A stretch of 64,000 nucleotides of DNA from assembly GCA_000091205.1 (NCBI GenBank), contig AP006493.2, one strand, 5' to 3'. Below, piece by piece: positions 3,328-58,182 of this stretch. This stretch comes from Cyanidioschyzon merolae (taxonomy: Eukaryota). Numbering within the stretch: the first letter of the stretch is position 1; the number at the start of each line of letters is the position of its first letter. Both the position numbers and the translations under genes were made by a program. A model generated the notes under the pieces. It did no database searches. It was not told the origin of the DNA and worked only from the letters and a program-made list of their open reading frames with translations.

Positions 3328-5544
3328 TCAGCAGGCTGCAACTACAACACTTACGCGAGCCTCCGTTAAAACACGTGCTGCACTCGTCCAAATGTGATAG
3401 AGCCTTTCTGCATACGGCATGATACCCACAATACCCTCTGTGCCGAGCCCTGATCCCCATACCTTGCGCAGAGCATCGACCCGCGCAGGCCACAACACTG
3501 CATGTGCCACAGCATGCGATGCGTACGTCCCGTAGCAGCTCACGAGAACGCCGTCGACCACAAGGCGCCCTGAGCGAGTCAACGGCGCATAGAGACCATT
3601 GTGCGTAACTAAAGTCTCGATTGCCACTACGGGGTCCGGCAGGTGCGCAGCAACGTCCAGCAGAGCGTCGCCAACGCGGATTTCTTCCGCGAAAACTGCC
3701 TCAACGGCGGAGGTATCCAACTCAAGGCTCTGACGTATGTGCTCCTGCTGATGCTGCTGCTGCTGCTTCTGTGAAATACACGAGAAAGCGGTCGTCATAC
3801 CGTAAAAGTCTCTAGAGTGTTCGATCATTCGATATACCAGATGCTGTCTCGTCAGACGCAGCTGCTTTCCGGAACGCGTCTTGATCGCCAGAATCTCTGC
3901 AGTAGCGCCGGCCTCGTTATGCAACCATCCTAGTACACTATCTTCGACCAGTTGCCCGCGCCCATTGACGCCCATTACGGCCATACCTGATCGAAGCTCG
4001 CTTATCTGCAGATGGTTGCCCAGACCATCGATCAGCACCGAGGCATCCGCGGGGAAGCAGACCGCAGAGCCTTCGCCCACAGCGGTCTGCGTCACATTTG
4101 TCGTTGCCGACGGTTCTGCAGTAACGGAGGGCGTCGGTGATGCCGTCGGAGTAGGCGTCGGTGTTGCGATGTATAATGTGAAGAGGTCATTATAGATGCC
4201 TGGTTTGCCTAGGCCTCCGAACAGGACCGGGTCGTTTTGATCGGTATCCCAAAGAACTGCACCGTATCGCGGAGGTGGAAGCGTAGTATTGCTTGTCTTG
4301 TTAAGCTCGCCGTAGCTATAGGCTCCATTCGTTGTATTGTCACCGTCTACCCAAGTCCATTCAAGACTCGTAATATTGAACGTCCACAGGTCGTTGCAGG
4401 CACCGGGTGAACTACCACCGAAGAGATACAGAGTGTTTGACGAGTCTACAAATCCAGAGGAAAAGGACCTGTACCCCGGAGTGTTGCTCGATGACGGCAC
4501 TCCTTTCTCGCCGTATACTGCCCCATTCAAACCAATTTTTTCATCTCCAGACATCCAGGTCCATTCTTTGGAGCTGACATTGTACAGCCATAAATCATTG
4601 AGAAGGCCGCCAGGTCTGACAATCTCTCCATCACCGCCAAAGAGCCAAAAGTTCCCATCAAGGTCTCGCCACGATGTGGCTCCGTAACGTCCCGCGGGAT
4701 AATTGCTCGGCGATGCCTGGCGAAACGTACCATAGCTTCCAGAGGGGTCCGGCTCTTGACTGCCCCCTACCCAGCTCCATTCGTTGTTCGCTGGGTTATA
4801 CTGCCACAAGTCACCGTAACTACTTCCATTAGCACCAGATCCACCAAAGAGATAAAACTGGTCATCCAAGCCAACCCAGGCCGCGGTTTTGTAGCGAGCA
4901 CCAGGCGTGTTGCTTGAAGACGAGTTTCCACGAGGACCATATGTCGGGGAAACATTGGTCTTGTTGGATCCCTGCACCCATGTCCATTCGCCCGACGATA
5001 CATTATACATCCACATATCACTATAGCCCGAGTTAAAATTCCAGCCTCCATATAGCCAAAGGTTTCCGTAGCTGTCGCTCCAACCAGCGGATTGCGTCCT
5101 CGAAGGCGGATGGTTGCTCTTGTTGGGAACTCCGCGGGAGCCGTATACCCCTGCAGAGTTGAGGGATGCAGAGCCTCCAACCCAGGTCCAAGAGAACGTG
5201 CTTAGATTGTAGTTCCAGAGATCACCGAAGACGTCTCTCAAGTCGCTGCCACCACCAAACAACCAGAGCACCCCGTCAGCGCCGGTCCAGAAGACCGCAC
5301 CGTACCGCGCCGGAGGCACGTTGCTGGTGTTCGGCACACCCTGAACACCGTAGCTACCTGAACTGCCGGTAGAGTTACTGCCACCGATCCAGGTCCATAA
5401 AAAAGTATCTTCGGAGGACAAAACTCCACGAACTGTGTGTGTACTCGACACAACCAATACTACCACCAGGAGTCTCACTATGGAAAAATATCTTTTTCGC
5501 ATATAGGATACGAAAGGGGTTCTGCACCAGTGAAAAGAAAACAC
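3328..5544 (-). CDS. Secreted Kelch-repeat (6-bladed propeller-like) protein fused to a C-terminal Hedgehog-type Hint (Hog) autoprocessing domain
   Basis: Single 738-aa ORF that ends in TGA. The N-terminus has a probable signal peptide (from the 2nd Met, MRKRYFSIVRLLVVVLVVSS). It has about 6 Kelch-like repeats (LWLFGG ... DLWxYN ... WTWVxG ... PxxRYG) with many NxS/T sequons, then a Thr/Pro-rich linker (TPTPTPTASPTPS), then a Hint domain. The Hint domain starts with the Hedgehog cleavage motif G|CFPADASVLIDG and ends with NGLYAPLTRSGRLVVDGVLVSCYGTYASHAVAHAVLWP, which resembles the Hh Hog region around SCYA. Confidence 0.8.
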   Translation of the reverse strand: MFSFHWCRTPFVSYMRKRYFSIVRLLVVVLVVSSTHTVRGVLSSEDTFLWTWIGGSNSTGSSGSYGVQGVPNTSNVPPARYGAVFWTGADGVLWLFGGGSDLRDVFGDLWNYNLSTFSWTWVGGSASLNSAGVYGSRGVPNKSNHPPSRTQSAGWSDSYGNLWLYGGWNFNSGYSDMWMYNVSSGEWTWVQGSNKTNVSPTYGPRGNSSSSNTPGARYKTAAWVGLDDQFYLFGGSGANGSSYGDLWQYNPANNEWSWVGGSQEPDPSGSYGTFRQASPSNYPAGRYGATSWRDLDGNFWLFGGDGEIVRPGGLLNDLWLYNVSSKEWTWMSGDEKIGLNGAVYGEKGVPSSSNTPGYRSFSSGFVDSSNTLYLFGGSSPGACNDLWTFNITSLEWTWVDGDNTTNGAYSYGELNKTSNTTLPPPRYGAVLWDTDQNDPVLFGGLGKPGIYNDLFTLYIATPTPTPTASPTPSVTAEPSATTNVTQTAVGEGSAVCFPADASVLIDGLGNHLQISELRSGMAVMGVNGRGQLVEDSVLGWLHNEAGATAEILAIKTRSGKQLRLTRQHLVYRMIEHSRDFYGMTTAFSCISQKQQQQHQQEHIRQSLELDTSAVEAVFAEEIRVGDALLDVAAHLPDPVVAIETLVTHNGLYAPLTRSGRLVVDGVLVSCYGTYASHAVAHAVLWPARVDALRKVWGSGLGTEGIVGIMPYAERLYHIWTSAARVLTEARVSVVVAAC

Positions 5545-6300: not shown

Positions 6301-7377
6301 TCACTCGTTGTTGATGCACTCCTCGCCAGAGCGGCAACAACGCACCTTGTTCACAAGGTTATCCGAAGCGATCAGGTACGTCCCGCACTGCTTTGTAGGG
6401 TCCTTGCATACACAGAATGACGGCAACAGCACCTGTTGCTGCTGCTGCTGTTGTCGCAGGTTATTGCTGTTGCTGAACGGGTTGTACGTACAGTTCTCTA
6501 TCTCGGCGTTGCAGCACTCCGGGCCACACGGAATATAGCTCGAGTTCGATACGTTGCCGGTCGTGCCGCTCATCGAGTTCGAGACGTACCCATACGCCTG
6601 GCACACGTACTCGGTCATCGGCTGGAAGCACTCGATGCCGATCCCCAGGCAGCAACCAGCCTCCAGACACTGCTGCGGCGAGTAGCTCGTGCGCTGCGTC
6701 CCGTGCTGCTCCCCGTACAGAAGCGTGTTCAGCAGACGCACAAACTGGTTGTTGTTGATATTATTGTTGGGCAGCTGCTGGTTCTGATTCACCGCGTTCG
6801 TGCACGGCTGGCGCTCAAACTCGCCCACAGCGCACGTCTTCTCGGGCTGGAAGCAGTACGGGTTCGACTCAAAGTCGCTCTGCTGCTTGCTGTTCTGCAC
6901 CCACTGGTTCTGCGCCTGCGAGTCGTAGCAGCAGCCCTAGGCATACCAGGTAAACTGGTTGATACCCGCGTTGCCGCACGGCTGGCGCTGCGCTCCCGGT
7001 GACGGGCAGACGGGTACTGGTGCCTGCACCTCCTGCAGCGCTACAGAGGCCTGCGGTGCATGGTTGATGTCGTAGTAGCACCAGGGCGCCAGGATGCCGT
7101 TCGCTGTTGGCTGCCAGCAGCATCCCGGTATCGCAGTGCACTCGTCTGGATAGATATAGCTCCAGCCGCAGGGGACGCGCTGCGTCACTGGAACAGCGCT
7201 GCACGCCGCTGAGACGCTCTTCAGAGTGCACGCGTTCGTCTGGGCGTTGAAGCAGCACCCGACTCGCTCGTAAGCGTCCTGGTTGATGCACTGTCCTGGA
7301 GATCCGCAGAGCTCATTGCAGAAATGGGGTGGGCGTCCGCGAAGTTTCTGGTGTTGGAGTAGGGGATGTTCCTCTCA
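6301..7377 (-). pseudogene. Cys-rich extracellular protein with trefoil (P-type) domain(s) and an N/Q-rich low-complexity region; the reading frame contains an in-frame TAG
   Basis: The minus-strand frame reads ...CNELCGSPGQCINQDAYERVGCCFNAQTNAC...RVPCGWSYIYPDECTAIPGCCWQPTANGILAPWCYYD, a textbook trefoil pattern (C..R.D/PC.......C...GCC[FW]......PWC[FY]). The same frame continues ...NQFTWYA*GCCYD... across a TAG at about 6934-6936, into ORF 6301-6900, which is full of Cys pairs and poly-Q/N. No ATG or signal peptide is present in this exon; see the neighbouring Kelch exon. Confidence 0.5.
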
Positions 7378-7428
7378 ATGAAAAGACATCATTGATAAAG
7401 TCACTGCAAGCGTGTTTGAACATCCAAA

Positions 7429-7614
7429 TCAACCAAATATGATCGGATCAGTCTCAATGTTGTTCCAGAATGCTGACCCATAGCGAGCACCTGGTACAAT
7501 CCTTGGGTCGGATTCGTTCAATGCACCATATCTTGCTGGAGCATTCACTGCCGAGCTTTCATTAATCCACGCCCGTTGACCCACTTTGATATCGAATACC
7601 CACAGATTTTTCAA
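7429..7614 (-). CDS. Single Kelch-repeat exon or fragment, possibly spliced to the trefoil gene through a 60-nt GT...AG intron
   Basis: ORF MKNLWVFDIKVGQRAWINESSAVNAPARYG...IIFG parallels the Kelch repeats of the 3328-5544 protein. A GT donor just after ...ATA TTT G and an AG acceptor 60 nt downstream (7439 to 7380) would join it in frame to ...EEHPLLQHQKLRGRPPHFCNELCGSPGQC (the trefoil exon). Confidence 0.35.
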   Translation of the reverse strand: MKNLWVFDIKVGQRAWINESSAVNAPARYGALNESDPRIVPGARYGSAFWNNIETDPIIFG

Positions 7615-8083
7615 ACGTCTGCAAGTGCGCTTCTATTGCCGTATTCTTCACCGCACAGAATTACCCAAATAAACACGCTCTGCCCTCTTGAACGACCACA
7701 GTTGGCAGTCTCTGGCGCATTCGATGCGAAGTAGGTCATAGCTATAGCTAAATGAATCACTATTGAAGTACGCTTTATGACTTGCGAAGCAATTTTGGTT
7801 CTCTACATCAGGAGGAGTGCCCTTTCACCCGATCACTATCCGATCGTGACAGTGGGGTGTCGTCTCATCGTTACGCTGTTGCTCTTACATCTGTTCTTGA
7901 AGCAGTGGTCTGCGCTCCGAAGCCGCATCTCATTCTCATCACTAACAAACCTTAGACAGGGGCCAAGATAGTCGACTTGAGGACTCGCCACCGTAAAGCC
8001 TGGTCGATCAGATCAAGACTCAGTTCGAATAGCTGATCTGCCTTGTCGATTTCGTACGTTGGTTCAATAACCTGCGGTTTCGT

Positions 8084-9211
8084 CTACTCACGCCCATCGG
8101 TATACTTGCCACGCCACTGACAATACGACCCCGAGTCCGAGAACTGTCCCTGGGTCGCCACTTCGGCTACGCGGCGGCCGGCCCCATCATTGGGAACGTA
8201 TTGCCGAGTGATGTACTTCTGAAGAATCGGGAAGAATACGTAGCGGAACCAGCCACGCTTTTCGGGGAAGAGGTTGCCGTCGGCGACACATCCGGGAATA
8301 ATAGCCACAGAGGTCACCCCGTCGCGGCCGTATCGATCACTGAGCGCCTTCGTTGTTAACACCTTCGCGGCTTTGGCGTCTTTGTAGGCTTTTGTGGGCT
8401 CAAACGGGCCTCTGTCCACCATGCCTGTCGTCTGCGGACCGAGCCCCGCGGCTAGACCAGACAAATCACCGAGACGAGCCTGTGGGGGGATCTTTCCCGG
8501 CAGCGAATTCGGCGAGTGGGTCTGAGTCGTCAGAAACACAATGCGCCTGCGCGATATTTTCAGCTTCGGCAACAGCTCCCGACATAGAAGCAAATGGCTC
8601 AGATGGCACACGTGCATGGTTTCCTCGATGCCGCCCACCGTGAAACGCGGTTTCTTGTCCGGCGGATGCTATATTGCGGCATTGCAGATCAGGGCATCCA
8701 GGTGATCGACGCGCGCCACACTTGACAGCTCTCTCACAAACTTTAATACAGAGGCGAAATCAGCCAGATCACAATGCAGCACTGTATAGGTGTCCTTTGG
8801 AAGGTTTACGCTGTTTGCTGCGCGCTCCGCCCGGTCGACGTCACGACATGCCATGACGATGTGCCAGTTGCCCTTGTTGACCAGAGCGCGAGCTGCATAC
8901 AGACCGACCCCAGAGGACGCGCCAGTGATCACGGCGATCTGCGACTGTTTCGGGCCCATACGAAGATGCAGCGCGTGGTGCCGGCGCGCTACAGGCGAAC
9001 GCTGCACCACCAAAGGAAGCGGATGCTGGCAGTGGTAACGATGTCCAGCTGCGAAGCACCTGTCACGTGCGGTACACAGCGGAAACGGTGCTCGAGTTGC
9101 AGCGGGTGCGCCAACTATGTGTTTTTCCTGGCACAGTGAAAAACAAACCAATACGTCTTGCAGTTTTTTGGGATAGATTTTCTCCGGTGGTAAAGCTGCC
9201 AACTTCATCAC
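8084..9211 (-). CDS. POR: Light-dependent NADPH:protochlorophyllide oxidoreductase (SDR family) with an N-terminal transit-peptide-like extension; one in-frame TAG (8669-8671)
   Basis: VITGASSGVGLYAARALVNKGNWHIVMACRD...LICNAAI, then TAG, then HPPDKKPRFTVGGIEETMHVCHLSHLLL...LGDLSGLAAGLG...KAYKDAKAAKVLTT...FPILQKYITRQYVPNDGAGRRVAEV. This aligns residue by residue with plant and algal POR. The TAG sits exactly at the conserved Tyr of CNAAVY(L/H)P. The two ORFs are in the same frame, and no GT/AG intron can remove the stop. Confidence 0.8.
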
Positions 9212-9513
9212 CGACTAAAGTCGTTCGCGTACGCATGCATTTCCAGTGAGAAATCTCTTTCTCGTTGCTGCACGAGTGATCGCCCGTCAATTGCACAGAG
9301 TCCGACTTCTGACTCCCGTAGACTGTCTAGCGTTGAGCGCATCGAGCACAAGCGCTCAATGTCTTCCACAGAGACGAGGCAAAGCTCTTATCATTCCAGA
9401 CACCAACCTCGCCAGTACTAGTAACTCAGTGCTCCGCATTGTTGCGCTTAGATATCACAACGATCGTAGTGGCACGATGCTGCACCCCGGCGTACGGCGC
9501 AGCGGACACGCAA

Positions 9514-9682
9514 GGGAATTCCCTCCAGCGGGATGATTTCGGCGCATATGCATCTGCCAAGGCGATGCTTCGAACAGCTGAGCTATTAGGGAATTCCCTC
9601 CAGCGGGATGATTTCGGCGCATATGCATCTGCCAAGGCGATGCTTAGAACAGCAGAGCTATTAGGGAATTCCCTCCCGCGCT
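9514..9682. repeat. 75-bp tandem repeat (2.2 copies) containing GGGAATTCCC and GCATATGC palindromes; upstream of POR
   Basis: The unit GGGAATTCCCTCCAGCGGGATGATTTCGGCGCATATGCATCTGCCAAGGCGATGCTTCGAACAGCTGAGCTATTA recurs at 9514, 9589 and 9664 (partial). Confidence 0.85.
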
Positions 9683-10559: not shown

Positions 10560-12728
10560 TTTTCTCCCAAAAAACTTAGACTTATGTACTTGGAGGTAGT
10601 GGGTTTGGTTTGGCCGGTGTTCCCGGATTTCAGAAAGAAACGAGACATATTGCGTAGCGAAGAGGGTCAGGAAAAGAAGAAGAAGCAACATGGGGTGGCA
10701 TTACATCGACGGCTGCAATAGTGACGTCTGTACGACGAAATGGTGGTGGAATCCTATATTCTCCAACATATCAATGATCCGTACGACTGAATGTTGCGAG
10801 ACCCTATCAGAAACCGTGCCGGTTCGTACGCCAGGTATATTTGTACCTTCTCTTTAGGACTGTGGCTTTTGGAGAGCGAGCTGCATTGGAACGTAACGCA
10901 CATCGCAAAAGTGATATTTCCGGAAGAAATTTTCCAAATGACTTTCATCAACCACCTGATTGTTTTTAATGGGAAAACATCGGAGATAAATGAGCGAGTG
11001 CATGCCTTCCTTAAAAATAACGCCAAATACCGCCTCAGCGGTGCTGGACACCGGGGTGACGCAGACATTTACGCATACAGGGCAAAGAGGTGCCTCACGA
11101 ATGTGAGGAACCATAAAATGGCAAACCTCGATTGTTGAGTAATACGGGCCGTCTTTGCGCTGTACCTGGGCCTATTTCGCGAAGCAATGCTTGCAATCAT
11201 CGATGGTATGAAGAACGATCGCCAGCATGAACAGGAGATCAGACTCGTCGACAAGAGGACATCACGCAGGAGAAAGAATGATGCTTTTGTTATCCGCGCC
11301 ACTATTGTAAAACATCGCTCGGTCTTGGGGCATGTCAACCGAAGAGAAAATTTTCAGATATTTGAAAAGACGAACATAGGTATTACTTCCTCATCCTGCC
11401 CTGCTTTATGTTTTCGGACCGAGACCTCCACCGCAGGGCCGACATTGAGCAGAGTGTGGAAAAATGACGAGTGCGAGAAACGACATTGAAGTCTTCTCCA
11501 GATGCGCTTCAATGTCGGTCGGTTATGCGCGTTCAAGTCACATTTTGTGAATATCGACCCCATAGTCCTTTTGCATCTTCAGGATAGAGATCTATCCATA
11601 GCTCGATGTAATCAACAAATAGGTCTCCGGTGAAGATCGGGACGCCTACGAGAAGAATATCTTCGATTTCAAGCGTCCCGAACCGGCCAAAAAAAGGTTA
11701 TTCACTGGAACAATCGATCTCGATGTGGCGCACATATGTGTACACCATCAGCGGTTGAAGGCAGCTCGTCCTATCCCGTCTTCGTTACGGGCGTTGCCGA
11801 AGAACGAACACAGGTTGACGGGCTATGGAACGTATAAGCCCCATGAAAACCACTTTGGCGTCGGCCTTAGTCCCTGTAGCACGAATATCATAACCATCGC
11901 TGTTCCCAAGCGAAGGGAAGATTGCACTGACGGCACCTTACGCCACAAACATATGCTTCTGCTGAGGTTTTCGAGAGAGAGAGATACTATCGAGAATCCG
12001 GTATAATGAATGCAAGGAAGAAGATCGTTACGTGGAATGTAGGAATGAAGGATCACCTGGAGGCTTTGAGCATGGTGACGAGCCGATGAGCGGACATTCA
12101 AGCTTTTCTGAAATTCATGGAAGTTGGGGTTGCTCATTCCGTGGCGCTGTAGGGCGAGTATACAAAGCACCGCTGGGCACGTTTGCGTATGAATCTGTGC
12201 CGTGGTAAGCATCACGCATTCGCGAGCTTTTTCAATCGATTGAACGCCTTGAAAGAGAATCAAGTCAGAGGCTCGTTGTTACATATGGTGTAGGGAGCTG
12301 GGCTCCGAAAAAAAAAAGGACTACACCAGCTCCAGCGGCAGGAATGTACAAAGAATGCGCACTGTGTTTCTCTACGATACCTGTAGGTGAGTTCCGAACA
12401 TCGTATACACACCACGAGTTGGGATGTACTCTTCAGAAGATGGAGATGGAAAAGTGCCCGCGGAGTCGTCATGATATAAAAAAGTAAGGGACAGCTGACG
12501 GGAGAGCAAATGGAAAAGAGGGGAGAAGTTCGTGGACTACTTGCATTAGTAAGTACGACTACCATCGGCAAGAAACGTATGGAGTTCGCGAACCGAGTCT
12601 TTAACGCTGCAATCAATCCACGGAGATGTGCGGGAATAGACAAAAGACTCCCAGCGTCGACACGAGAAAACATTGTTGGACAACCTCTTAAACTGGAACT
12701 ATATGAGAAAAAATGGTACCCACAGTAG
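10560..12728 (+). pseudogene. TnpB/Fanzor-like RuvC nuclease reading frame, copy 1 (multiple frameshifts and stops)
   Basis: Basic stretch (EEGQEKKKKQ), then ...RLYDEMVV..., then the segment homologous to copy 2 (WNVTHIAKVIFPEEIFQMTFINHLI ... HRGDADIYAYRAKRCLTNVRNHKMANLD). RuvC-I-like position SPCSTNIITIA. Zinc-finger-like MYKECALCFSTIPVGEFRTSYTHHELGCTLQKMEMEKC (12344-12480). RuvC-III-like EFANRVFNAAINPRR (about 12585-12630), with the expected Asp replaced by Val. Confidence 0.5.
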
Positions 12729-12890
12729 GTGGCCGGTCGGAAAAGACGGGGAGGCGTCTGCACGTCAGCTAGAGATTTTTGGTCTAGGGCGAGTTTCTCG
12801 CCAGTACTGTACACTGCCGGCAGCAACGTTTTTGTTTTGAAAGGTGTTTGTTGTCGTCGTCGGGTGCGGCGGTCGTACGAGACGTTTCGG
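12729..12890 (+). ncRNA. Candidate omega-RNA scaffold region (conserved non-coding tail of element copy 1)
   Basis: The non-coding sequence just after the stop codon is conserved between the two copies at a level similar to the coding sequence. In TnpB/Fanzor systems the guide RNA scaffold overlaps and extends beyond the 3' end of the ORF. Confidence 0.25.
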
Positions 12891-14005: not shown

Positions 14006-15070
14006 TCAAGATGCTTTCTTCGGCGTGCTCTGGAGTGCCTCTATACTGGATTGGAGGTCTTCTTTCTCGTCACTTTCCATGAACGGCAGTATTTGTAGTA
14101 CTTCAACGACACCATTCCGACCTAGCACACAAGGCAACGACAAGAATACATCCGCCGACTCGAGGCCTCGCAACGAGCCCGCATGCGTCGTTATTGGCAG
14201 CACTTTGCGCCGATCATGCACAATCGTTGTAACGATGCTTCCAACAGCGCTGCCAATGGCCCAGTTGGTGTAGCCTTTCAGCTTAATGACCTCGTAAGCC
14301 GCGGCTACAACTTGCTGATGGACACCTTTCACCAGATCATAGAATGCTGTGGACGCGCTCGCAGCGTCGGTCATGCGCTCGAAGCATGTTCGCAACGGCA
14401 CGCCACCAACCGTAATACCACTCCGGTACACGAACGAGGAGTCTCCGTGCTCGCCCAGTACCATGGCCTGGACGGAAGCGGTATCGATGCCCAGCCGCTG
14501 CGCCAGAAGTGTGCGGAAACGCGAAGAGTCCAAATATGTCCCTGAGCCAATCACACGTTCGCGGGGCAAGCCACTCATCTGCCACGCTAGATGTGTCAAT
14601 AGATCAACGGGGTTACTCACAACCAACAGGATTGTGTTCGGCGAATACTGCACCAGGGGCGGAATAATGCCTTTGAACAATGCGGCATTGCGATCCATGA
14701 GCTCAAGACGACTTTCTCCGGGCCGCTGACGCACACCTGCCGTTATAATACATACTGCTGAATGTGCTGTATCCTCGTAGGACTCGGCAGCCCGGATGCG
14801 GGTGCTATAGAACGCACCTCCATGCTGCAAGTCCATAACTTGACCCTTGAGTTTGTCCTTAAGAACGTCCACCAGTACCAGCTCACTACAAATATCTCGG
14901 GTCAAAATATTATACGCGCAAGCAACGCCAACGTCGCCAGCTCCAACCACGGTGATGCGGACGGGGTACGAACGTGCAAGCGCCGCACCCGGCGTGTCGA
15001 TCGCAGGCGAGACCTCCCCAAAGAGACTTCCCTGAAGCTCAGCCGCTGCCTCGTCGATCCCTGACGTCAT
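14006..15070 (-). CDS. LDH: L-lactate dehydrogenase (LDH/MDH superfamily, LDH-type Gln at the specificity position)
   Basis: RITVVGAGDVGVACAYNIL...LVDV...GQVMDLQHG (Rossmann fold). ITAGVRQRPGESRLEL (Gln102 and Arg109 equivalents). VSNPVD. LGEHGDSS (catalytic His). Ends in TGA. About 30-aa N-terminal extension. Confidence 0.85.
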   Translation of the reverse strand: MTSGIDEAAAELQGSLFGEVSPAIDTPGAALARSYPVRITVVGAGDVGVACAYNILTRDICSELVLVDVLKDKLKGQVMDLQHGGAFYSTRIRAAESYEDTAHSAVCIITAGVRQRPGESRLELMDRNAALFKGIIPPLVQYSPNTILLVVSNPVDLLTHLAWQMSGLPRERVIGSGTYLDSSRFRTLLAQRLGIDTASVQAMVLGEHGDSSFVYRSGITVGGVPLRTCFERMTDAASASTAFYDLVKGVHQQVVAAAYEVIKLKGYTNWAIGSAVGSIVTTIVHDRRKVLPITTHAGSLRGLESADVFLSLPCVLGRNGVVEVLQILPFMESDEKEDLQSSIEALQSTPKKAS

Positions 15071-16334
15071 TCCAAAGAGCGCAGTTCCACGATTTGCTTC
15101 CTTGCGAGACAGATCTTCGAAAAAGTCCGACTACAGGTTTTAGATCGCCCGAGCTGCGGTGCAGGGTTGTTTCCAGCACTGGTGCCGAGATCGCTACAAA
15201 CCCGTGATCGTTTTGTTCTCCAGCACTATAGGCCTCGCCAAAACTAGGTACAGTGCTCTTTGATAACACAGCTGTCTGATCCACGAAGGTATTGCTTTAA
15301 GTCAGAGGGAACGCCCGAGACTGAGCGCCCTGAATAAAGCATGCTATCCGTTGAGGACACAAAGATGCACTTGAGGGCTTTCGCGATCGCCCAGAAGCGC
15401 CTTCCGGAGATTCGATCCAGAGCGATGCGCGTCTCGATGACGAGTCCGCCTCCGGAGCGTTTTTTTCTTTTTGATGAAAAAACGTTTGCATTGACCATGC
15501 ATCCCAGAATTCGGAACGCACGATGGCTTCCGGGGATATCTCGATCATAGTGCACCTGTCCTCAAGTCCCATTACCCATACTACCTCTCTGATATACTGG
15601 TCGTTTCGTATGTTCTATCGAGCGCCGAGCCTGTTGTGAGCACCCGCTGTAGCGCTTATACCGCTGAAGCAGGTGCTGCACAGAGACAGAACGGCTTTGC
15701 CATACCACTAAGGGCGTCCGCTCGAGGAATGATTCACCTGAACCGGAATCAGGGCTATTTGTCATTCTGGGAACATGCAAAATGCGCAGACAGACCTACT
15801 ACCTGCGACAGCGCGAAGTGCTGTACTAGGATTCCACTGCGACCAGGGCGAGGCCCAACGCAGCATCCTGTGCATAGTCTCAGGATGAAATGCGCTGCGA
15901 ACGAGCTACGCAGGTCTTGCAGCAGCAGCAGCAGCAGCAGCGGCGGCCACTTTAGAGGCATACCGAGCTCTAGCCCGGTAGACTCGACCGGCTCGCGGGA
16001 CCTTCCGCCTCGAACATAAGCTTCCGATAATACGGCGATCTATTTCCCCTTAAACGCTTATCGTAGAGCGGGAAAAAATTTTATATCGTTTCTTGTAAAT
16101 TGTAAGTCACTGTCCTTTTTCCTATATGGCGCGCTCGATACGTGCATCTCCAAGTATGGCACTTAGGAGACACGACGCGTGTGTCGCCATTGAAGAGAAA
16201 CGCGATCGTGACGACACGTTATCTTGTTGTTCTAACGGGCAAGTTGTATATCTGTGGAAGTCGTAACAAATCATAGTTTCCAGTTCGATTGTGTCTCAAC
16301 CCTCAAGTAAACATATTCAATTGATTTCTCGCAG

Positions 16335-16342
16335 TATATAAT
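16335..16342 (+). promoter_or_regulatory. TATA-box-like motif upstream of the Fanzor-like ORF (copy 2)
   Basis: TATATAAT in an AT-rich stretch 52-59 bp 5' of ATG 16394. Confidence 0.3.
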
Positions 16343-16393
16343 AGAAGGGTTCAAAGAGCGTTCTTTTTCACAGAAAAAAATGAAAAGAAAGTT

Positions 16394-18568
16394 ATGAAAA
16401 AGCAAGTCGACGATCCTGGAGGCCCAGTGTCGCCTGCTGCCAGAAATAAAAACAAAAAACAGAGCCGAGTCCAGAAGAACAGGAAAAGAAGAAGAAGCAA
16501 AAGGGGAGGCCCTAAGTCGAAGGCGGCAAGAAAGACGACTGTACGACGAGATGCTGGTGAAAGCCTGTCTTCTTAAACATATCGACCATCCCTACAAGGA
16601 AAATTTGCGAGACGCTATCGAAAAACGTTTCGATTCGTACTCCATGAGTATTTTCAAGGCGTCGTCAAGACTGATGCATTTGGCATGGGAGATGTACGAG
16701 AACGTGGCGCACTTAGAAACGGTCGAGATTCCGGACGATTCTTTCGATAAGACCTTTATTCGACACCTGATGCTTGGCACAGCGGAAACGCGGAGGGAAA
16801 ATGTGCTAGTGCATGGCCTTTACGAAAAACATCCCTTTTACAGGTTCGAGGGTACTCGATACAAGCGTGACCGGGATATTTACATGTACGGAGCGATGAA
16901 GTATATCACGAACCTGAAGAATCCTTTGGCAGCGAACCTCGAACGTTTCATGATACGCACCGTGTCTGCACACTGCCCGGGCATCTCTCGCAAAGGAGTA
17001 TGGGCGATTATCAATGGCATCACGAACGATCGTAAGCGTGAAGATGAGGTTGAATTTGTCAGGGAGAAGGCGTCATGCAGGAGTACGAATGAAGCTGCTG
17101 TAATGCGTGCGGCGATATAATAGCACCGCGCAATCTTGGGGTTGCCGAATCCAACAGAAAGGGTATCAGATTTAAAAAACGATAAGGAAAGATACTATTG
17201 CCTCATCCTGCGATATTTTTTGTCTCTGGACCGAGGGCTCCAACGCGAGGCAGAGATGAAGGTGAGTTGGAGAAAAAATGAAGAGTGGGAGAGACGGAAG
17301 GCTCTGCTAATGGGAAAGTGCGTCAACGTCATACCAATGTGCAACATCAAGTCACATTTCGTGACTATCGACTCCAGCGTCCTTTACGGCATCATGACGG
17401 AGATCATTCCGGAGTTCGATGTAAACAGGAAGGAGTTCACCTGTGATAACCGGGAGACGGACTGGAAGAATAGCTTCAATTTCAAACGTCTCGAAGTCAA
17501 CAAACAAAAGGTATTCACTGGGATGATCGAATCCGATGGATTAGCCATGTGTATACACTATCGGCGGTTGAAGACAGATCGTCCAGTTCCGTCCTCAGCG
17601 AAGCATGAAGATGAGAAGGATATGGGTCCTGCGACGAAGAAAGTGCATGGGAACGACTTTGTCGTTCGCGCGCACCCTGGAAACACGAATATCGTAACCA
17701 TCGCAGCACCCAAGCGTGCGGAAGATGGTACTGACGGCAACTTGCGTCAGAAAGACACGCGTCTGTTGAGATTCTCGAGAGCGAGATTCTACCGAGAATC
17801 GCGTATAATGGATGCAAGGAAGAAAATTAAGACATTGAATGCAGGATTGCGGGAGCGCCTTGAAGCTAGAAGGGAGGTGACGAGCCGTGAAGCAGACTTT
17901 GTAGCTGTTCGGGAGTTCATGGAAGTTCGCGTTGCTCATTGGGAGGCGTTGTGGAAAGAATACGCCAAGCCGATGCGAGCTCTTCTGCGTCCGAATCCAT
18001 ACTGTGGGAAGCAGCGTGCATTTGACAACTTTTTCAATGAGTTGAGCTTCTAGAAGGAGGACAAATCACAAAGGCTCGCAGTGGCGTACGGAGCAGGGCG
18101 CTGGAAGACCAGGAAAGGGACTACGCCACCTCCAACGACAAGAACGTTCAAGGAGTGCGTAAGACGTTTCGTTACGATACCAATAGACGAGTTCCGTGCC
18201 TCGTATACACACCATGAACTGGGGTGCACACTTCAGAGCGTGGAGATGGAAAAGTGCCAACGGAGCCCTGAGGATATAAAAAATACGGACCGCTGACAGA
18301 AGAGCAGCTGGAAAGTATGGCGAAAGTTCGTGGGCTACTTGCATTAGTACGTACAATCAATGGCGAGATACGTATGGGGTTTGTGAACCGAGACTTTAAC
18401 GCCGCAATCAAGATAAGGAAATGTACGGTGACGGAGAGAAGACCTCCAGAGTGGACAAGAGTGAACTTCAATGGACAACCGCTCAAAGTTGAACTGTATG
18501 AGAACAAATTGGAATCAGTAGAGGGGTGCCTGTCGAACAAGACTAGGATGCGTCTGCACAGCTGCTGA
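16394..18568 (+). pseudogene. TnpB/Fanzor-like (OMEGA-type) RuvC nuclease reading frame, copy 2; interrupted by in-frame TAA-TAG (17118-17123), TAG (18054-18056) and a frameshift near 18297-18316, or alternatively by unusual introns
   Basis: N-terminal basic NLS-like segment NKNKKQSRVQKNRKRRRSKRGGPKSKAARK (16394-16576). Two long ORFs in frame, 16551-17120 and 17136-18053. RuvC-I-like position VRAHPGNTNIVTIAAP (17673-17699), with His where the catalytic Asp of G-I-D-x-G is expected. Possible RuvC-II region ADFVAVREFMEV. Zinc-finger-like segment KECVRRF...YTHHELGCTLQSVEMEKC (18081-18296). RuvC-III-like GFVNRDFNAAIKIRK (18377-18421), matching the TnpB/Cas12 D-x-N-A-A-x-N-I signature. Confidence 0.55.
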
Positions 18569-18685
18569 AAACGTACTGTCGAAAGCGTGTTTCACGCTTC
18601 AACTGTACACCGCTGGCGGCAGCGTTTTTCTTTTGAACGGCGTATTTCCCGAAGGTCGTCACGAGAGCGAGGACTTCTATACAGC
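18569..18685 (+). ncRNA. Candidate omega-RNA scaffold region (conserved non-coding tail of element copy 2)
   Basis: Same reasoning as for 12729-12890. Conservation stops just before the UFD1 start codon. Confidence 0.25.
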
Positions 18686-21491: not shown

Positions 21492-24242
21492 ATGGGGTTC
21501 ATATGCGTCTCTCTCTTTCAGGGGTTCAGCATCGGCGCGGAACGGGTGGGAAGTTACTCTGGCTTTTACCGAAGACGGCATCCGGGATGGAGGTTTCGAC
21601 CACGGCAACCGGGTACGCTCCCGGTGCTTCCGTTGCCGCCTGACAGACTGACGCCCAGATGGGATGCACCCGCGATCCGCGTATCGAATGGTTCGTCAGT
21701 CACACGCAGTATTCCGCGAATGTCGGCAAGAACTGGTTCCCGTGGCTTTGAAGAGCAGCAGGGCGGCGACGCGTCGGTTTCTGCGGCCTCTGAAGTTGTT
21801 GGCGGCACACCTGGTACCTCCACTGAAGGTGCAGCCACAGGCACGCTAGGCTCTGGCCGGCCGTGGAATAAAGGCGTGGCGCATTCGCCGGAAGTTCGGG
21901 CTCGAATAGGAGCTGCTCGACGAGGTAAGGCGCCATGGAATAAAGGAAAGGCGTTGTCAGAGGAGCATCGACGGAAAATAGGCGCAGCGCACGAAGGTCG
22001 TCCTCTGAGCTCAGAGCATCGTCAACGCATCGCCAAGGGCATGCGACGCCGGCCCGATGACGTCTTGACCGGTAAAAAGGGAGGCGACACTCCAGCTGGT
22101 GCCGCCTCCACCGAGGCACACGAGCTCGACGAATTTGGACGCCTACAGAAGCTGCTCTTGTCCGCTGAACTGGAAACGGGTATCGTGCCGAATACGGAGT
22201 CTGCTAGCACGGGCCGCCATGCGATGCAAGACGCATCGGAAACACAGGAAAATGTCCTTTCTCAAAGCGATGACGTAGAAGAAAATCGGATCGAAAGTAT
22301 GGAACCGGCTGGACGCGCGTCCCCAGAAGATGAAGTAGAGGCATCATCGTTGGACTCGGTTGCACTAGACGTGCAGCGTTTTACACGCCTAAGAGCTGAA
22401 CTTCGAGCGTGGAGCCAACTGTTTGCTCGCTTTCATGGCGGTAGGCGTCCATCGCTTGCTGACGTGCGTCGCACCGGTTCCCTTGAGATTATCAACAAGT
22501 TTGAAATGTATCTGAAGCTTCGGGAACGGTTGCGCAATCTGGCGGATGAAGTACTTGGCGACACGCTTATGATTCCTGGTGTAAGTCGAAAGGTTTTAGC
22601 CGCCCCGGGCGGCAGTGAAGATGTTTCCAAGGACTACCGCTCGACAGAGGTAATCGATACCTGGATGCGATATCTGCGTATGCAGAGAGAAATTGAGAGG
22701 AGCGGTGAATCCACGACCCAGACTCCGTCGGTTGGCGTCCCGAAGACTCGGAGACGTACGAGAAGGAGCCCCGTGGAAGTCATGAAGGAGAACGCTCGCA
22801 AACCTATTTCGGTTTGGCCGAACCAGGTCAAAGTCGATTCCGGAAAGGACGGGGCGCCCGATCATTCCGTCCCAGGGGAACCGAATGAAACCTCATGGAC
22901 TCGGGCCGTATCGAAAGAGATGACCCATGCGGACGAGTCTGTATTATCACCATCGAGGAGCCTGGTGTCTGATGTGGCGCCAAAAGCTGATCCCGACTCG
23001 GGGGGAATCATTGCAGGGGCGCCACCAATAAGCTTTCCGAGAATTCCCGCAACGGCCGAGTCGAGCGCCGCTGAAGGTGCAACCTTGCTGCCAACAAAAA
23101 CTCTGAACAAGGCGAATGCTCTGCAGAAGCAATACAATCGGGGTTCGAGTACAAGGAAATCTTCGCGAACGAGGCGCAGCGCTTCGAAAGATAGCAAGAC
23201 AGCCGATCCAGCGCTGGACTCCGGCACACTTCCGAATACGATGCAGAACGACAGCAACGAAACTCTTTATCGAGAGGCGTCCGCCGCGACTCGCACGACT
23301 TGTGAACACAATGAGAACCCTGCGCCCAATGGAGCGGACACTGGGCACGCGAGTAGCACAGGGCCCACTTTTTTCAACTCGACGGAATCGACGACTGACG
23401 ACCGATCCAGGAGCCGCGAATCGTCGACAAATGCGCCGTTGGCGACGCACGACCTGTACCACAGCGCTTCGAGCACTCTCGGAAACGAGTCTAACGCCAC
23501 AGCGCCGAGCACCATTATGTCCGTAACACCGTCCGCAGCCGCTGTCCATGAGATGGCGACGGAGTGCGCCTCGTGCGCCACCGAGACCGCGCAGCATGCA
23601 GGAGCATCCATGCCGAATCCGGGCGCTGCCTCTGCCACCAGTAATGAAGGAGTATTTCTAGACGAGGACCAGCGCAACGAACAGGGCCAAAAGCCGGTGC
23701 CCGTGGTACCTCCGCAGGATCCAGCCAGCAGCCATGCGCTGGAAACTCGGAAAACCCTTGATCCCGGGCGGACGGATAACGACTCCGCAGAGCCCAGACC
23801 TGGTGTCGTGAACGCCGTTCAGCCCGAACTCGGATTAAGTGAGGAATTCGTTTTTCCGAGCGTAATCGAGCACGAGCTGGAGCCGCTGGATTATAGCCTA
23901 TTAGGGCGGATACGGCTCCTGGGCGTCAATGATGTGCGCGAAATCCTCTCACTACGCAAGACTCTGCGAAGATGGATTGAGCAGTTTAAGTTGAAGTACG
24001 GGCGCCGGCCTACCGTTCAGGACGCGGATCTGTATCTCTCAGCGGATGATCATGTCGAACTACGAAAAGTTCAATGCAGGAAATATGTTCAGTTACGGGA
24101 CACGCTGGAGCTGAAATCGCGCAAGATATACGACGATTCATTCGTTGAACTATTAGAGCAACATCATGCACGAATCGAGCGGCTTGTGGAGCGCCTCGCT
24201 CGGGAGCCAGCACAACTCACACCGCCCGAAGCGACGCCCTAG
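21492..24242 (+). CDS. Large Ser/Thr/Pro-rich hypothetical protein with three NUMOD3-like repeats and a duplicated C-terminal W...F....GRRP..D motif (real start may be downstream of 21492)
   Basis: 916-aa uninterrupted ORF that ends in TAG. Three repeats: WNKGVAHSPEVRARIGAARRGKAP, WNKGKALSEEHRRKIGAAHEGRP, LSSEHRQRIAKGMRRR. Two internal repeats: LRAELRAWSQLFARFHGGRRPSLADVRR...YLKLRERL and LRKTLRRWIEQFKLKYGRRPTVQDADL...YVQLRDTL. Confidence 0.6.
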   Translation: MGFICVSLFQGFSIGAERVGSYSGFYRRRHPGWRFRPRQPGTLPVLPLPPDRLTPRWDAPAIRVSNGSSVTRSIPRMSARTGSRGFEEQQGGDASVSAASEVVGGTPGTSTEGAATGTLGSGRPWNKGVAHSPEVRARIGAARRGKAPWNKGKALSEEHRRKIGAAHEGRPLSSEHRQRIAKGMRRRPDDVLTGKKGGDTPAGAASTEAHELDEFGRLQKLLLSAELETGIVPNTESASTGRHAMQDASETQENVLSQSDDVEENRIESMEPAGRASPEDEVEASSLDSVALDVQRFTRLRAELRAWSQLFARFHGGRRPSLADVRRTGSLEIINKFEMYLKLRERLRNLADEVLGDTLMIPGVSRKVLAAPGGSEDVSKDYRSTEVIDTWMRYLRMQREIERSGESTTQTPSVGVPKTRRRTRRSPVEVMKENARKPISVWPNQVKVDSGKDGAPDHSVPGEPNETSWTRAVSKEMTHADESVLSPSRSLVSDVAPKADPDSGGIIAGAPPISFPRIPATAESSAAEGATLLPTKTLNKANALQKQYNRGSSTRKSSRTRRSASKDSKTADPALDSGTLPNTMQNDSNETLYREASAATRTTCEHNENPAPNGADTGHASSTGPTFFNSTESTTDDRSRSRESSTNAPLATHDLYHSASSTLGNESNATAPSTIMSVTPSAAAVHEMATECASCATETAQHAGASMPNPGAASATSNEGVFLDEDQRNEQGQKPVPVVPPQDPASSHALETRKTLDPGRTDNDSAEPRPGVVNAVQPELGLSEEFVFPSVIEHELEPLDYSLLGRIRLLGVNDVREILSLRKTLRRWIEQFKLKYGRRPTVQDADLYLSADDHVELRKVQCRKYVQLRDTLELKSRKIYDDSFVELLEQHHARIERLVERLAREPAQLTPPEATP

Positions 24243-31198: not shown

Positions 31199-31202
31199 TG
31201 TG

Positions 31203-31238
<36 letters not shown>

Positions 31239-31350
31239 AATACCTACATGTTTACCTTCCTACCTGCCTTCCTACCTGCCCGCTTACCTGCCTGAATACC
31301 TACATATTTACCTTCCTACCTGCCTTCCTACCTGCCTGAATACGTGCCTG
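31199..31350. repeat. (TGCC/CCTG)n microsatellite followed by an imperfect duplication of about 60 bp
   Basis: tgcctgcctgcctgcc... for about 38 bp, then ctgaatacctacat[g/a]tttaccttcctacctgccttcctacctgcc twice. Confidence 0.85.
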
Positions 31351-56576: not shown

Positions 56577-57040
56577 GAGATCGTTCCCAGAGATCTCGAA
56601 TGGGGGTTTTCCAACGCTCGATAGACACAGTACATGCATGTGTTCTTATTGAAGAAATGTAAGCACGAGATCGTTCCCAGAGATCTGGAATGGGAGCTTT
56701 CCAACGCTCGATAGACACAGTACATGCATGTGTTCTTATTGAAGAAATGTAAGCACGAGATCGTTCCCAGAGATCTCGAATGGGGGTTTTCCAACGCTCG
56801 ATAGACACAGTACATGCATGTGTTCTTATTGAAGAAATGTAAGCACGAGATCGTTCCCAGAGATCTGGAATGGGGGTTTTTCCAACGCTCGATAGACACA
56901 GTACATGCATGTGTTCTTATTGAAGAAATGTAAGCACGAGATCGTTCCCAGAGATCTGGAATGGGGTTTTTCCAACGCTCGATAGACACAGTACATGCAT
57001 GTAAGCGCTCTTATTGAAGAAATGTAAGCATAGCGAGCTT
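56577..57040. repeat. Satellite-like tandem array, about 5 copies of a 90-91 bp unit
   Basis: The unit GAGATCGTTCCCAGAGATCT[C/G]GAATGGG[G/A]G[T/C]TTTCCAACGCTCGATAGACACAGTACATGCATGTGTTCTTATTGAAGAAATGTAAGCAC begins at 56577, 56667, 56757, 56847 and 56938. The last copy is degenerate. Confidence 0.9.

Positions 57041-58117: not shown

Positions 58118-58121
<4 letters not shown>

Positions 58122-58182
<61 letters not shown>
58122..58182. repeat. (CAGG)n microsatellite (about 15 units), the reverse complement of the (CCTG)n at 31199
   Basis: aggcaggcaggcagg... for about 60 bp. Confidence 0.9.

Follow-up and report, generated by a model that had tools for sequence, protein, structure and literature searches.

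Very probable pseudogenes of protochlorophyllide oxidoreductase and of a trefoil-domain gene, interrupted by TAG codons, on chromosome 11 of Cyanidioschyzon merolae

Two neighbouring minus-strand gene copies of the red alga Cyanidioschyzon merolae, one related to light-dependent protochlorophyllide oxidoreductase (POR) and the other to a trefoil-domain gene, are interrupted by in-frame TAG codons. They lie in a stretch of 64,000 nucleotides (contig AP006493.2 of assembly GCA_000091205.1), which was analysed at its full length and is termed the window. An exact-sequence look-up shows that open reading frames (ORFs) of the window are identical to the C. merolae 10D proteins BAM80407.1–BAM80411.1, BAM80416.1, BAM80418.1 and BAM80419.1; the frames with an exact 10D match encode L-lactate dehydrogenase (LDH), a UFD1-like protein, CMK009C, CMK010C, adenosine kinase, and Trk-like, glycogenin-like and hedgehog-like proteins. 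These exact matches place the window on chromosome 11 of strain 10D. The interval between BAM80407.1 (hedgehog-like) and BAM80408.1 (LDH), where the POR and trefoil copies are situated, holds no annotated protein. The two copies are very probably ordinary duplicated, non-processed pseudogenes that belong to a known repeat family and carry ordinary nonsense mutations. Their features are as follows.

7952–9163, minus strand: probable POR pseudogene, colinear with the functional 403-aa POR of the same species (tblastn, Pfam).
8669–8671, minus strand: first TAG of the POR copy, apparent nonsense codon for Trp (TGG) of NAAIWHP; 31 copies have TGG, and TAG is found only in the window and in L035, L036 and L037.
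8084–8086, minus strand: second TAG of the POR copy, apparent nonsense codon for Lys (AAG) in GREKTKPQ; 29 copies have AAG and one AAC, and TAG is unique to the window.
9161–9163, minus strand: canonical start lost, CTG for ATG; 18 copies have ATG, and CTG is shared by the window and 10 contigs with the same N-terminus (MKLAAL...).
6301–7330, minus strand: probable trefoil-domain pseudogene, the trefoil part of a former Kelch-trefoil gene (Pfam Trefoil, E=4.8e-11; homologues P0121–P0129).
6937–6939, minus strand: TAG of the trefoil copy, apparent nonsense codon for Gln (CAG) in FTCYAQGCCYD by paralogue comparison; the identical allele is in L055.
6946–6948, minus strand: a trefoil-domain cysteine lost, Cys to Trp (TGC to TGG), three codons before the TAG (paralogue comparison).
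7325–7620, minus strand: Kelch remnant with a Thr/Pro linker, most Kelch repeats missing (paralogue comparison).

The POR copy is aligned by tblastn with residues 1–403 of protein P0001 over window positions 9163–7955, at 90% identity, and is recognized by Pfam as adh_short (E=1.5e-21). The POR-like frame extends from an ATG at 9206–9208 to a stop at 7952–7954, and the start of functional POR corresponds to positions 9161–9163. There are no frameshifts, and in-frame stops are present at codons 165 and 360 (P0001 numbering). The first of these had been noticed in a first-pass annotation of the sequence; it is present at 8669–8671 on the minus strand, in the context ICNAAI-TAG-HPPDKKP, and is surrounded by sequence that is private to the window copy, e.g. 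NAAI-x-HPPDKKPRFTVGGIEETMHVCH. The second, spanned by the window sequence GRE-x-TKPQVIEPTYEIDK, was taken by that annotation as the gene terminator, and POR was described as interrupted by a single TAG. Forty-three codons past it (TKPQVIEPTYEIDKADQL...; TKPQVIEPTYEIDKADQLFELSLDLIDQALR...) are homologous to the POR C-terminus and lead up to the stop at 7952–7954. A 20-nt intron (GTGAGT...CAG) around the second TAG was considered and rejected, since splicing it out would change the frame and lead to a stop, and the homology to POR is kept when the sequence is simply read through.

The stops are not the only lesions. Functional PORs begin with MQALFV and the window copy reads LQDVLV at the same point, with CTG in place of the initiator; the upstream ATG at 9206–9208 would lengthen the transit peptide by 15 residues. 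Five near-invariant residues are replaced: D to G (TVDGIEE), M to T (VLTMKAL), F to I (IFPGC), R to P (LFREK) and Y to C (SYYQW). In the alignment these replacements are radical and differ from all intact relatives. Thus the POR gene is not perfectly conserved outside a single codon, as had been supposed. The copy does retain TGASSGVG, the TGxxxGxG Rossmann motif of the short-chain dehydrogenase/reductase (SDR) superfamily, and YKDAK, the catalytic YxxxK. Its likeness to the light-dependent PORs of this superfamily therefore consists of 90% protein identity to C. merolae POR and the preserved nucleotide-binding and catalytic motifs; it differs from them in having two premature stops, no canonical start and replaced near-invariant residues. 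It lacks the uninterrupted frame of about 400 codons with transit peptide and start, and the family-invariant residues, of a functional enzyme. A 75-bp tandem repeat (9513–9680; 2.2 copies, 96% matches) is situated on the 5′ side of the POR copy, about 300 bp away, and is also found in L005 and L016, two of the environmental contigs, designated L, used for comparison here.

It had been proposed that the first TAG replaces an invariant Tyr, an assignment drawn from the NAAVY motif of plants. The residue at 8669–8671 is Trp (NAA[IT]WHP) in all cyanidiophyte and other red-algal PORs aligned, including both annotated 10D PORs, and Tyr is found at this position only in the one cyanobacterial sequence of the alignment. 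The closest POR homologues are metagenome and Logan proteins of 73–94% identity; red-algal PORs come next, with about 54%. At the three TAG sites, close relatives have Trp (TGG) and Lys (AAG) in POR and Gln (CAG) in the trefoil gene; each of these codons is one base change from TAG, and none specifies Tyr. The metagenome contig L012, which is colinear with the window from 9179 to 5414, reads TGG, AAG and CAG at the three sites.

The trefoil copy is damaged as well. Matches to P0122 span window positions 7548–6232 (tblastn), and the copy is 5′-truncated, with only a stub of the Kelch region left. Intact Kelch-trefoil paralogues have 1 bp more near 7410 and 2 bp more near 7325; these gaps in the window copy shift the frame and bring in two TGA stops. 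Both missing segments are present in contigs L040, L033 and L032; L016 has only the additional 1 bp (7410), L026 and L014 have only the 2 bp (7325), and L012 has the same deletions as the window. An in-frame TAG had been reported at about 6934–6936; it is present, but its position is 6937–6939. The claim of otherwise perfect conservation fails for this gene as well, in view of the frameshifts, the loss of Kelch sequence and the Cys to Trp change. A P-type trefoil protein has a six-cysteine pattern, an open frame and a signal peptide, and the window copy departs from this, the third cysteine of the affected domain being Trp. The codon at 6946–6948 has been hit repeatedly: Cys (TGC), Trp (TGG), Tyr and stop codons are found there in different paralogues (L026/L014, L016/L033/L032).

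Elsewhere in the 10D genome, on other chromosomes, two POR genes are intact. Their 403-aa products, BAM81403.1 and BAM79708.1, read W and K where the window copy has TAG; they share 98% identity with each other and about 90% with the window copy. According to Hunsperger et al. (2015, Table 2), C. merolae has three por genes and its plastid lacks chlL/N/B; POR is therefore the only route to chlorophyllide. The same table contradicts the idea that a plastid DPOR (chlL/N/B) makes POR dispensable. POR is essential to the alga, and the window copy would not be.

Related POR copies are numerous in hot-spring metagenomes. A scan found 42 POR loci. Many are from the same sample, and the unique genes next to them differ, which marks the loci as distinct. 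Premature stops or frameshifts disrupt most full-length copies and are common to subsets of copies at codons 12, 165, 277, 322, 353 and 359. The contigs often end inside POR or 0.4–0.6 kb past it. At each end of one 76-kb contig (Ga0080006_1178247; L029 and L030) is a truncated POR copy that points outward, and the two have identical match statistics against the window; the arrangement is either a real inversion or an assembly artefact.

The ratio of nonsynonymous to synonymous substitution rates (dN/dS) for the window copy against the intact L008 is 0.20. This compares with 0.07 for L012 against L008 and with 0.03 for L008 against L010, which are intact orthologues with saturated dS; other damaged copies give 0.17–0.28 against L008. 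Seven of the nine POR substitutions unique to the window are nonsynonymous (one of them a stop) and two are synonymous. These values point to relaxed constraint on the POR copy.

The distribution of differences from L012 is uneven. The contig closest to the window, L012 (98.3% identity), has the same flanks and differs from it by 63 substitutions and no indels. Within 8795–7980, 41 of 816 bases differ, vs 22 of 2950 elsewhere (Fisher p=9e-14). A second concentration of 17 differences is found in 7319–6829 (Fisher p=6e-8), and only five differences are present in 1380 intergenic bases. Furthermore, 32 of the 41 POR differences are states of other paralogues, which appear in shifting combinations. 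Because the differences are packed in coding blocks and are mostly paralogue states, the simplest reading of the mosaic, as judged from these environmental relatives, would be ectopic gene conversion limited to tracts common to the paralogues. A mutation bias resembling repeat-induced point mutation was rejected, as all substitution classes are seen in the spectrum against L005.

The combination found here, an intact POR paralogue in the same genome together with disabling lesions and apparently relaxed constraint, is that of duplicated pseudogenes. Redundant POR and trefoil copies would have drifted under relaxed selection and gained point nonsense mutations, TGG to TAG and AAG to TAG in POR and CAG to TAG in the trefoil gene. 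Further decay would include loss of the start and missense changes at conserved residues in POR, and two frameshifts with 5′ truncation in the trefoil copy. Translation would stop at each TAG so that no full-length protein is made, and the intact paralogues elsewhere in the genome would supply POR function. Lesions, including the TAG at 8669–8671, may also be moved from copy to copy by ectopic conversion within the repeat family. We infer that both copies lack expression and function.

Several observations weigh against this interpretation. The second POR TAG (8084–8086) is private to the window and without independent confirmation. The near-identical L012 has open frames for both POR and the trefoil segment; the lesions may be recent, or L012 may have been homogenized by conversion, or it may be a chimeric metagenome consensus. 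Although a dN/dS of 0.2 is relaxed, it falls short of neutrality; some of the divergence may thus have accumulated under constraint or may have been imported from functional copies. Lastly, no telomere repeat (AATGGGGGG) is present within the 64 kb, and the window may simply start inside the repeat element in which these genes are found (see below).

Sequencing or assembly error, i.e. base-call errors or a mis-assembled mix of repeat paralogues, had been offered as one explanation of the TAGs. A repeat family of many copies is hard to assemble, the second TAG is in no other sequence, and L012 has sense codons at all three sites. The first TAG, on the other hand, is also present in L035, L036 and L037, three contigs from three samples, and the trefoil TGG and TAG allele is repeated base for base in L055 (three samples). 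Since both recur in independent contigs, they represent real alleles and not errors. In addition, 63 substitutions that are clustered, largely paralogue-shared and unaccompanied by indels do not resemble errors, and the C. merolae genome was finished to all 40 chromosome ends (Nozaki et al., 2007). Error is thus very unlikely.

Programmed readthrough, or the use of TAG as a context-dependent sense codon, would yield full-length POR and trefoil proteins and had also been put forward. In its favour, all three in-frame stops within 1.8 kb are TAG and homology goes on after each. The residues replaced, however, are W, K and Q, each one mutation away, and because these are three different residues no single recoding fits the TAGs. 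That TAG is a real terminator in this genome, as noted in the first-pass annotation, is borne out: it ends seven of the 14 large window ORFs, and five of the seven are identical end to end to annotated 10D proteins and have the same lengths in environmental orthologues. The motif CARYYA is associated with readthrough. The sequences 3′ to the three stops (TAG-CAT-CCG, TAG-ACG-AAA and TAG-GGC-TGC) do not fit it, and a programmed-readthrough context was rejected on this ground. There are no tRNA genes in the 64-kb window. Paralogues also carry frameshifts, and the POR copy has no canonical start and has damaging missense changes. A scan of the whole window for frames with a single stop was noisy at 55% GC and dominated by long spurious antisense ORFs; only the three TAGs of POR and the trefoil gene stood out with homology on both sides. 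Readthrough is scarcely credible; the standard genetic code appears to apply, with the TAGs as ordinary nonsense mutations.

It is about as hard to believe that the truncated ORFs are functional in themselves, for example as a 179-aa Rossmann fragment or a short trefoil peptide. ORFs of 179–199 aa are still open, but by exact look-up no gene with the 179-aa N-terminal POR product is on record in any public assembly. The 179-aa fragment is without the YxxxK catalytic motif, and the unique substitutions stand at seven nonsynonymous to two synonymous; the trefoil fragment has neither a start codon nor a signal peptide.

Ongoing loss of POR or photosynthesis, suggested by a disabled POR here and by many disabled copies in related environmental genomes, deserves almost no credence, given two intact, highly conserved PORs in the same genome, POR as the sole route to chlorophyllide, and the abundance of the intact type in databases (a 56-member cluster). 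The earlier suggestion of very recent pseudogenization accordingly survives in that a redundant copy decays, but not as a loss of POR from the organism.

The genes that flank the two copies help to place these probable pseudogenes on the chromosome.

3328–5502, minus strand: Kelch-Hint (‘hedgehog-like’) gene, intact, in the same subtelomeric block (exact match to BAM80407.1; Pfam Kelch and Hint).
14006–15070, minus strand: LDH gene, member of the subtelomeric gene set (exact match to BAM80408.1).

Nozaki et al. (2007; BMC Biol 5:28, PMC1955436, Fig. 3) described homologous elements of up to 20 kb next to telomeres. These elements hold trefoil (T), POR (P), LDH (L) and hedgehog (H) genes, and the legend of Fig. 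3 puts LDH among the terminal-region genes; PH elements are listed at 6L, 7R, 8L, 8R, 11L, 14R, 18R and 19R. POR, trefoil, Kelch-Hint and LDH, exactly the gene set of the PH element, are all within 3.3–15.1 kb of the window. Because the gene set is that of the published element, the window is taken as the left end of the chromosome, 11L, and would carry its PH element; the left-end placement follows Nozaki et al. (2007). The published element and the one seen here share organism and chromosome by the exact protein matches, and 11L is listed with a PH element. The difference is that the text of Nozaki et al. (2007) does not use the word pseudogene, the disabled state of the 11L POR and trefoil copies being only implicit in the missing protein annotation, whereas the lesions and mosaic pattern of these copies are set out in the present analysis.

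Cho et al. (2023; Nat Commun 14:10, PMC9812998) reported subtelomeric Kelch-trefoil and Kelch-Hint duplications in Cyanidiales, with 12–24 copies at chromosome ends. In these genes Kelch is fused to trefoil or Hint via a Thr/Pro/Ala linker. Similarly, the window has an intact Kelch-Hint gene and a Kelch-trefoil remnant with a TPTPTP linker. Adaptive duplication is stressed by Cho et al. (2023); in contrast, the window copy is evidently a decayed remnant.

LDH is present in several copies: BAM80408.1, BAM79100.1 and BAM78829.1 are on three 10D chromosomes and form one cluster at 90% identity. The region 5′ to LDH is one of structural variation. Four environmental contigs (L001–L004) with an identical LDH protein have, compared with window positions 15045–15296, additional tandem copies of a segment of about 250 bp just upstream of LDH.

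A repeat element, termed here element X, accompanies POR copies at most loci.

16258–18618, plus strand: element X (about 2.4 kb), with copies 74–82% identical about 1 kb upstream of POR.

A partial second copy of element X is found at 11067–12852. Longer ORFs of the element are in L026 (2826–4088, minus strand) and L030 (6535–7485, minus strand) and contain the motifs G(M/V)(D/N)PGNTN and VDEFRTSYT. These recall the RuvC motifs of TnpB/Fanzor and may serve as a lead; naming the element Fanzor or TnpB was rejected, as no match was found in Pfam or in a PDB sequence search. Bao and Jurka (2013) described one Fanzor1 element in C. merolae (CMe-1A, about 3 kb, about 150 copies), and element X may correspond to it.

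Elsewhere in the window, the 916-aa ORF at 21492–24242 (CMK009C, hypothetical) has a NUMOD3 nuclease-associated motif (Pfam E=4e-10), and most environmental orthologues are 840 aa in length. Tandem repeats include an intergenic 90-bp unit at 56577–57030, which is present in five copies of 95% identity and was also detected with a period of 181 bp; the simple repeats are (TGCC)n at 31201–31350, inside a 56-bp repeat, and a perfect (AGGC)x15.5 at 58121–58182.

Non-processed pseudogenes shaped by ectopic recombination are well known in multi-copy families, e.g. the yeast subtelomeric families and human olfactory-receptor copies. Subtelomeric families of this type are also cited by Mikulski (2017). 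The POR copies are like them in being multi-copy, in having lesions common to subsets and in their patchwork similarity. They differ in that the C. merolae gene is the organism's only type of protochlorophyllide reductase and not a typical contingency or environment-sensing gene.

The finding thus amounts to a clean negative as regards a variant genetic code, programmed readthrough and loss of chlorophyll synthesis, and is of a kind already known, i.e. pseudogene decay in a repeat family of a finished, well-studied genome. It also carries a caution for scans of this type: a plant motif led to the wrong residue being assigned, and an in-frame stop passed for the gene's own terminator. Of modest interest is the setting, in which the sole protochlorophyllide reductase family sits in terminal repeats amid a swarm of damaged copies, and the mosaic among POR copies would be a convenient natural record of gene conversion.

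A broader possibility, put forward tentatively and with the odds against it, is that the chromosome-end POR and trefoil copies, pseudogenes included, form an actively recombining pool in which conversion shuttles tracts and nonsense alleles between copies, and both disables and repairs them. If so, it would explain why L012 appears ‘repaired’ across exactly the coding blocks. It would also mean that the alga's only protochlorophyllide reductase is kept in an unstable compartment, one reported in published work to be marked by H3K27me3, with possible consequences for plasticity in copy number or expression.

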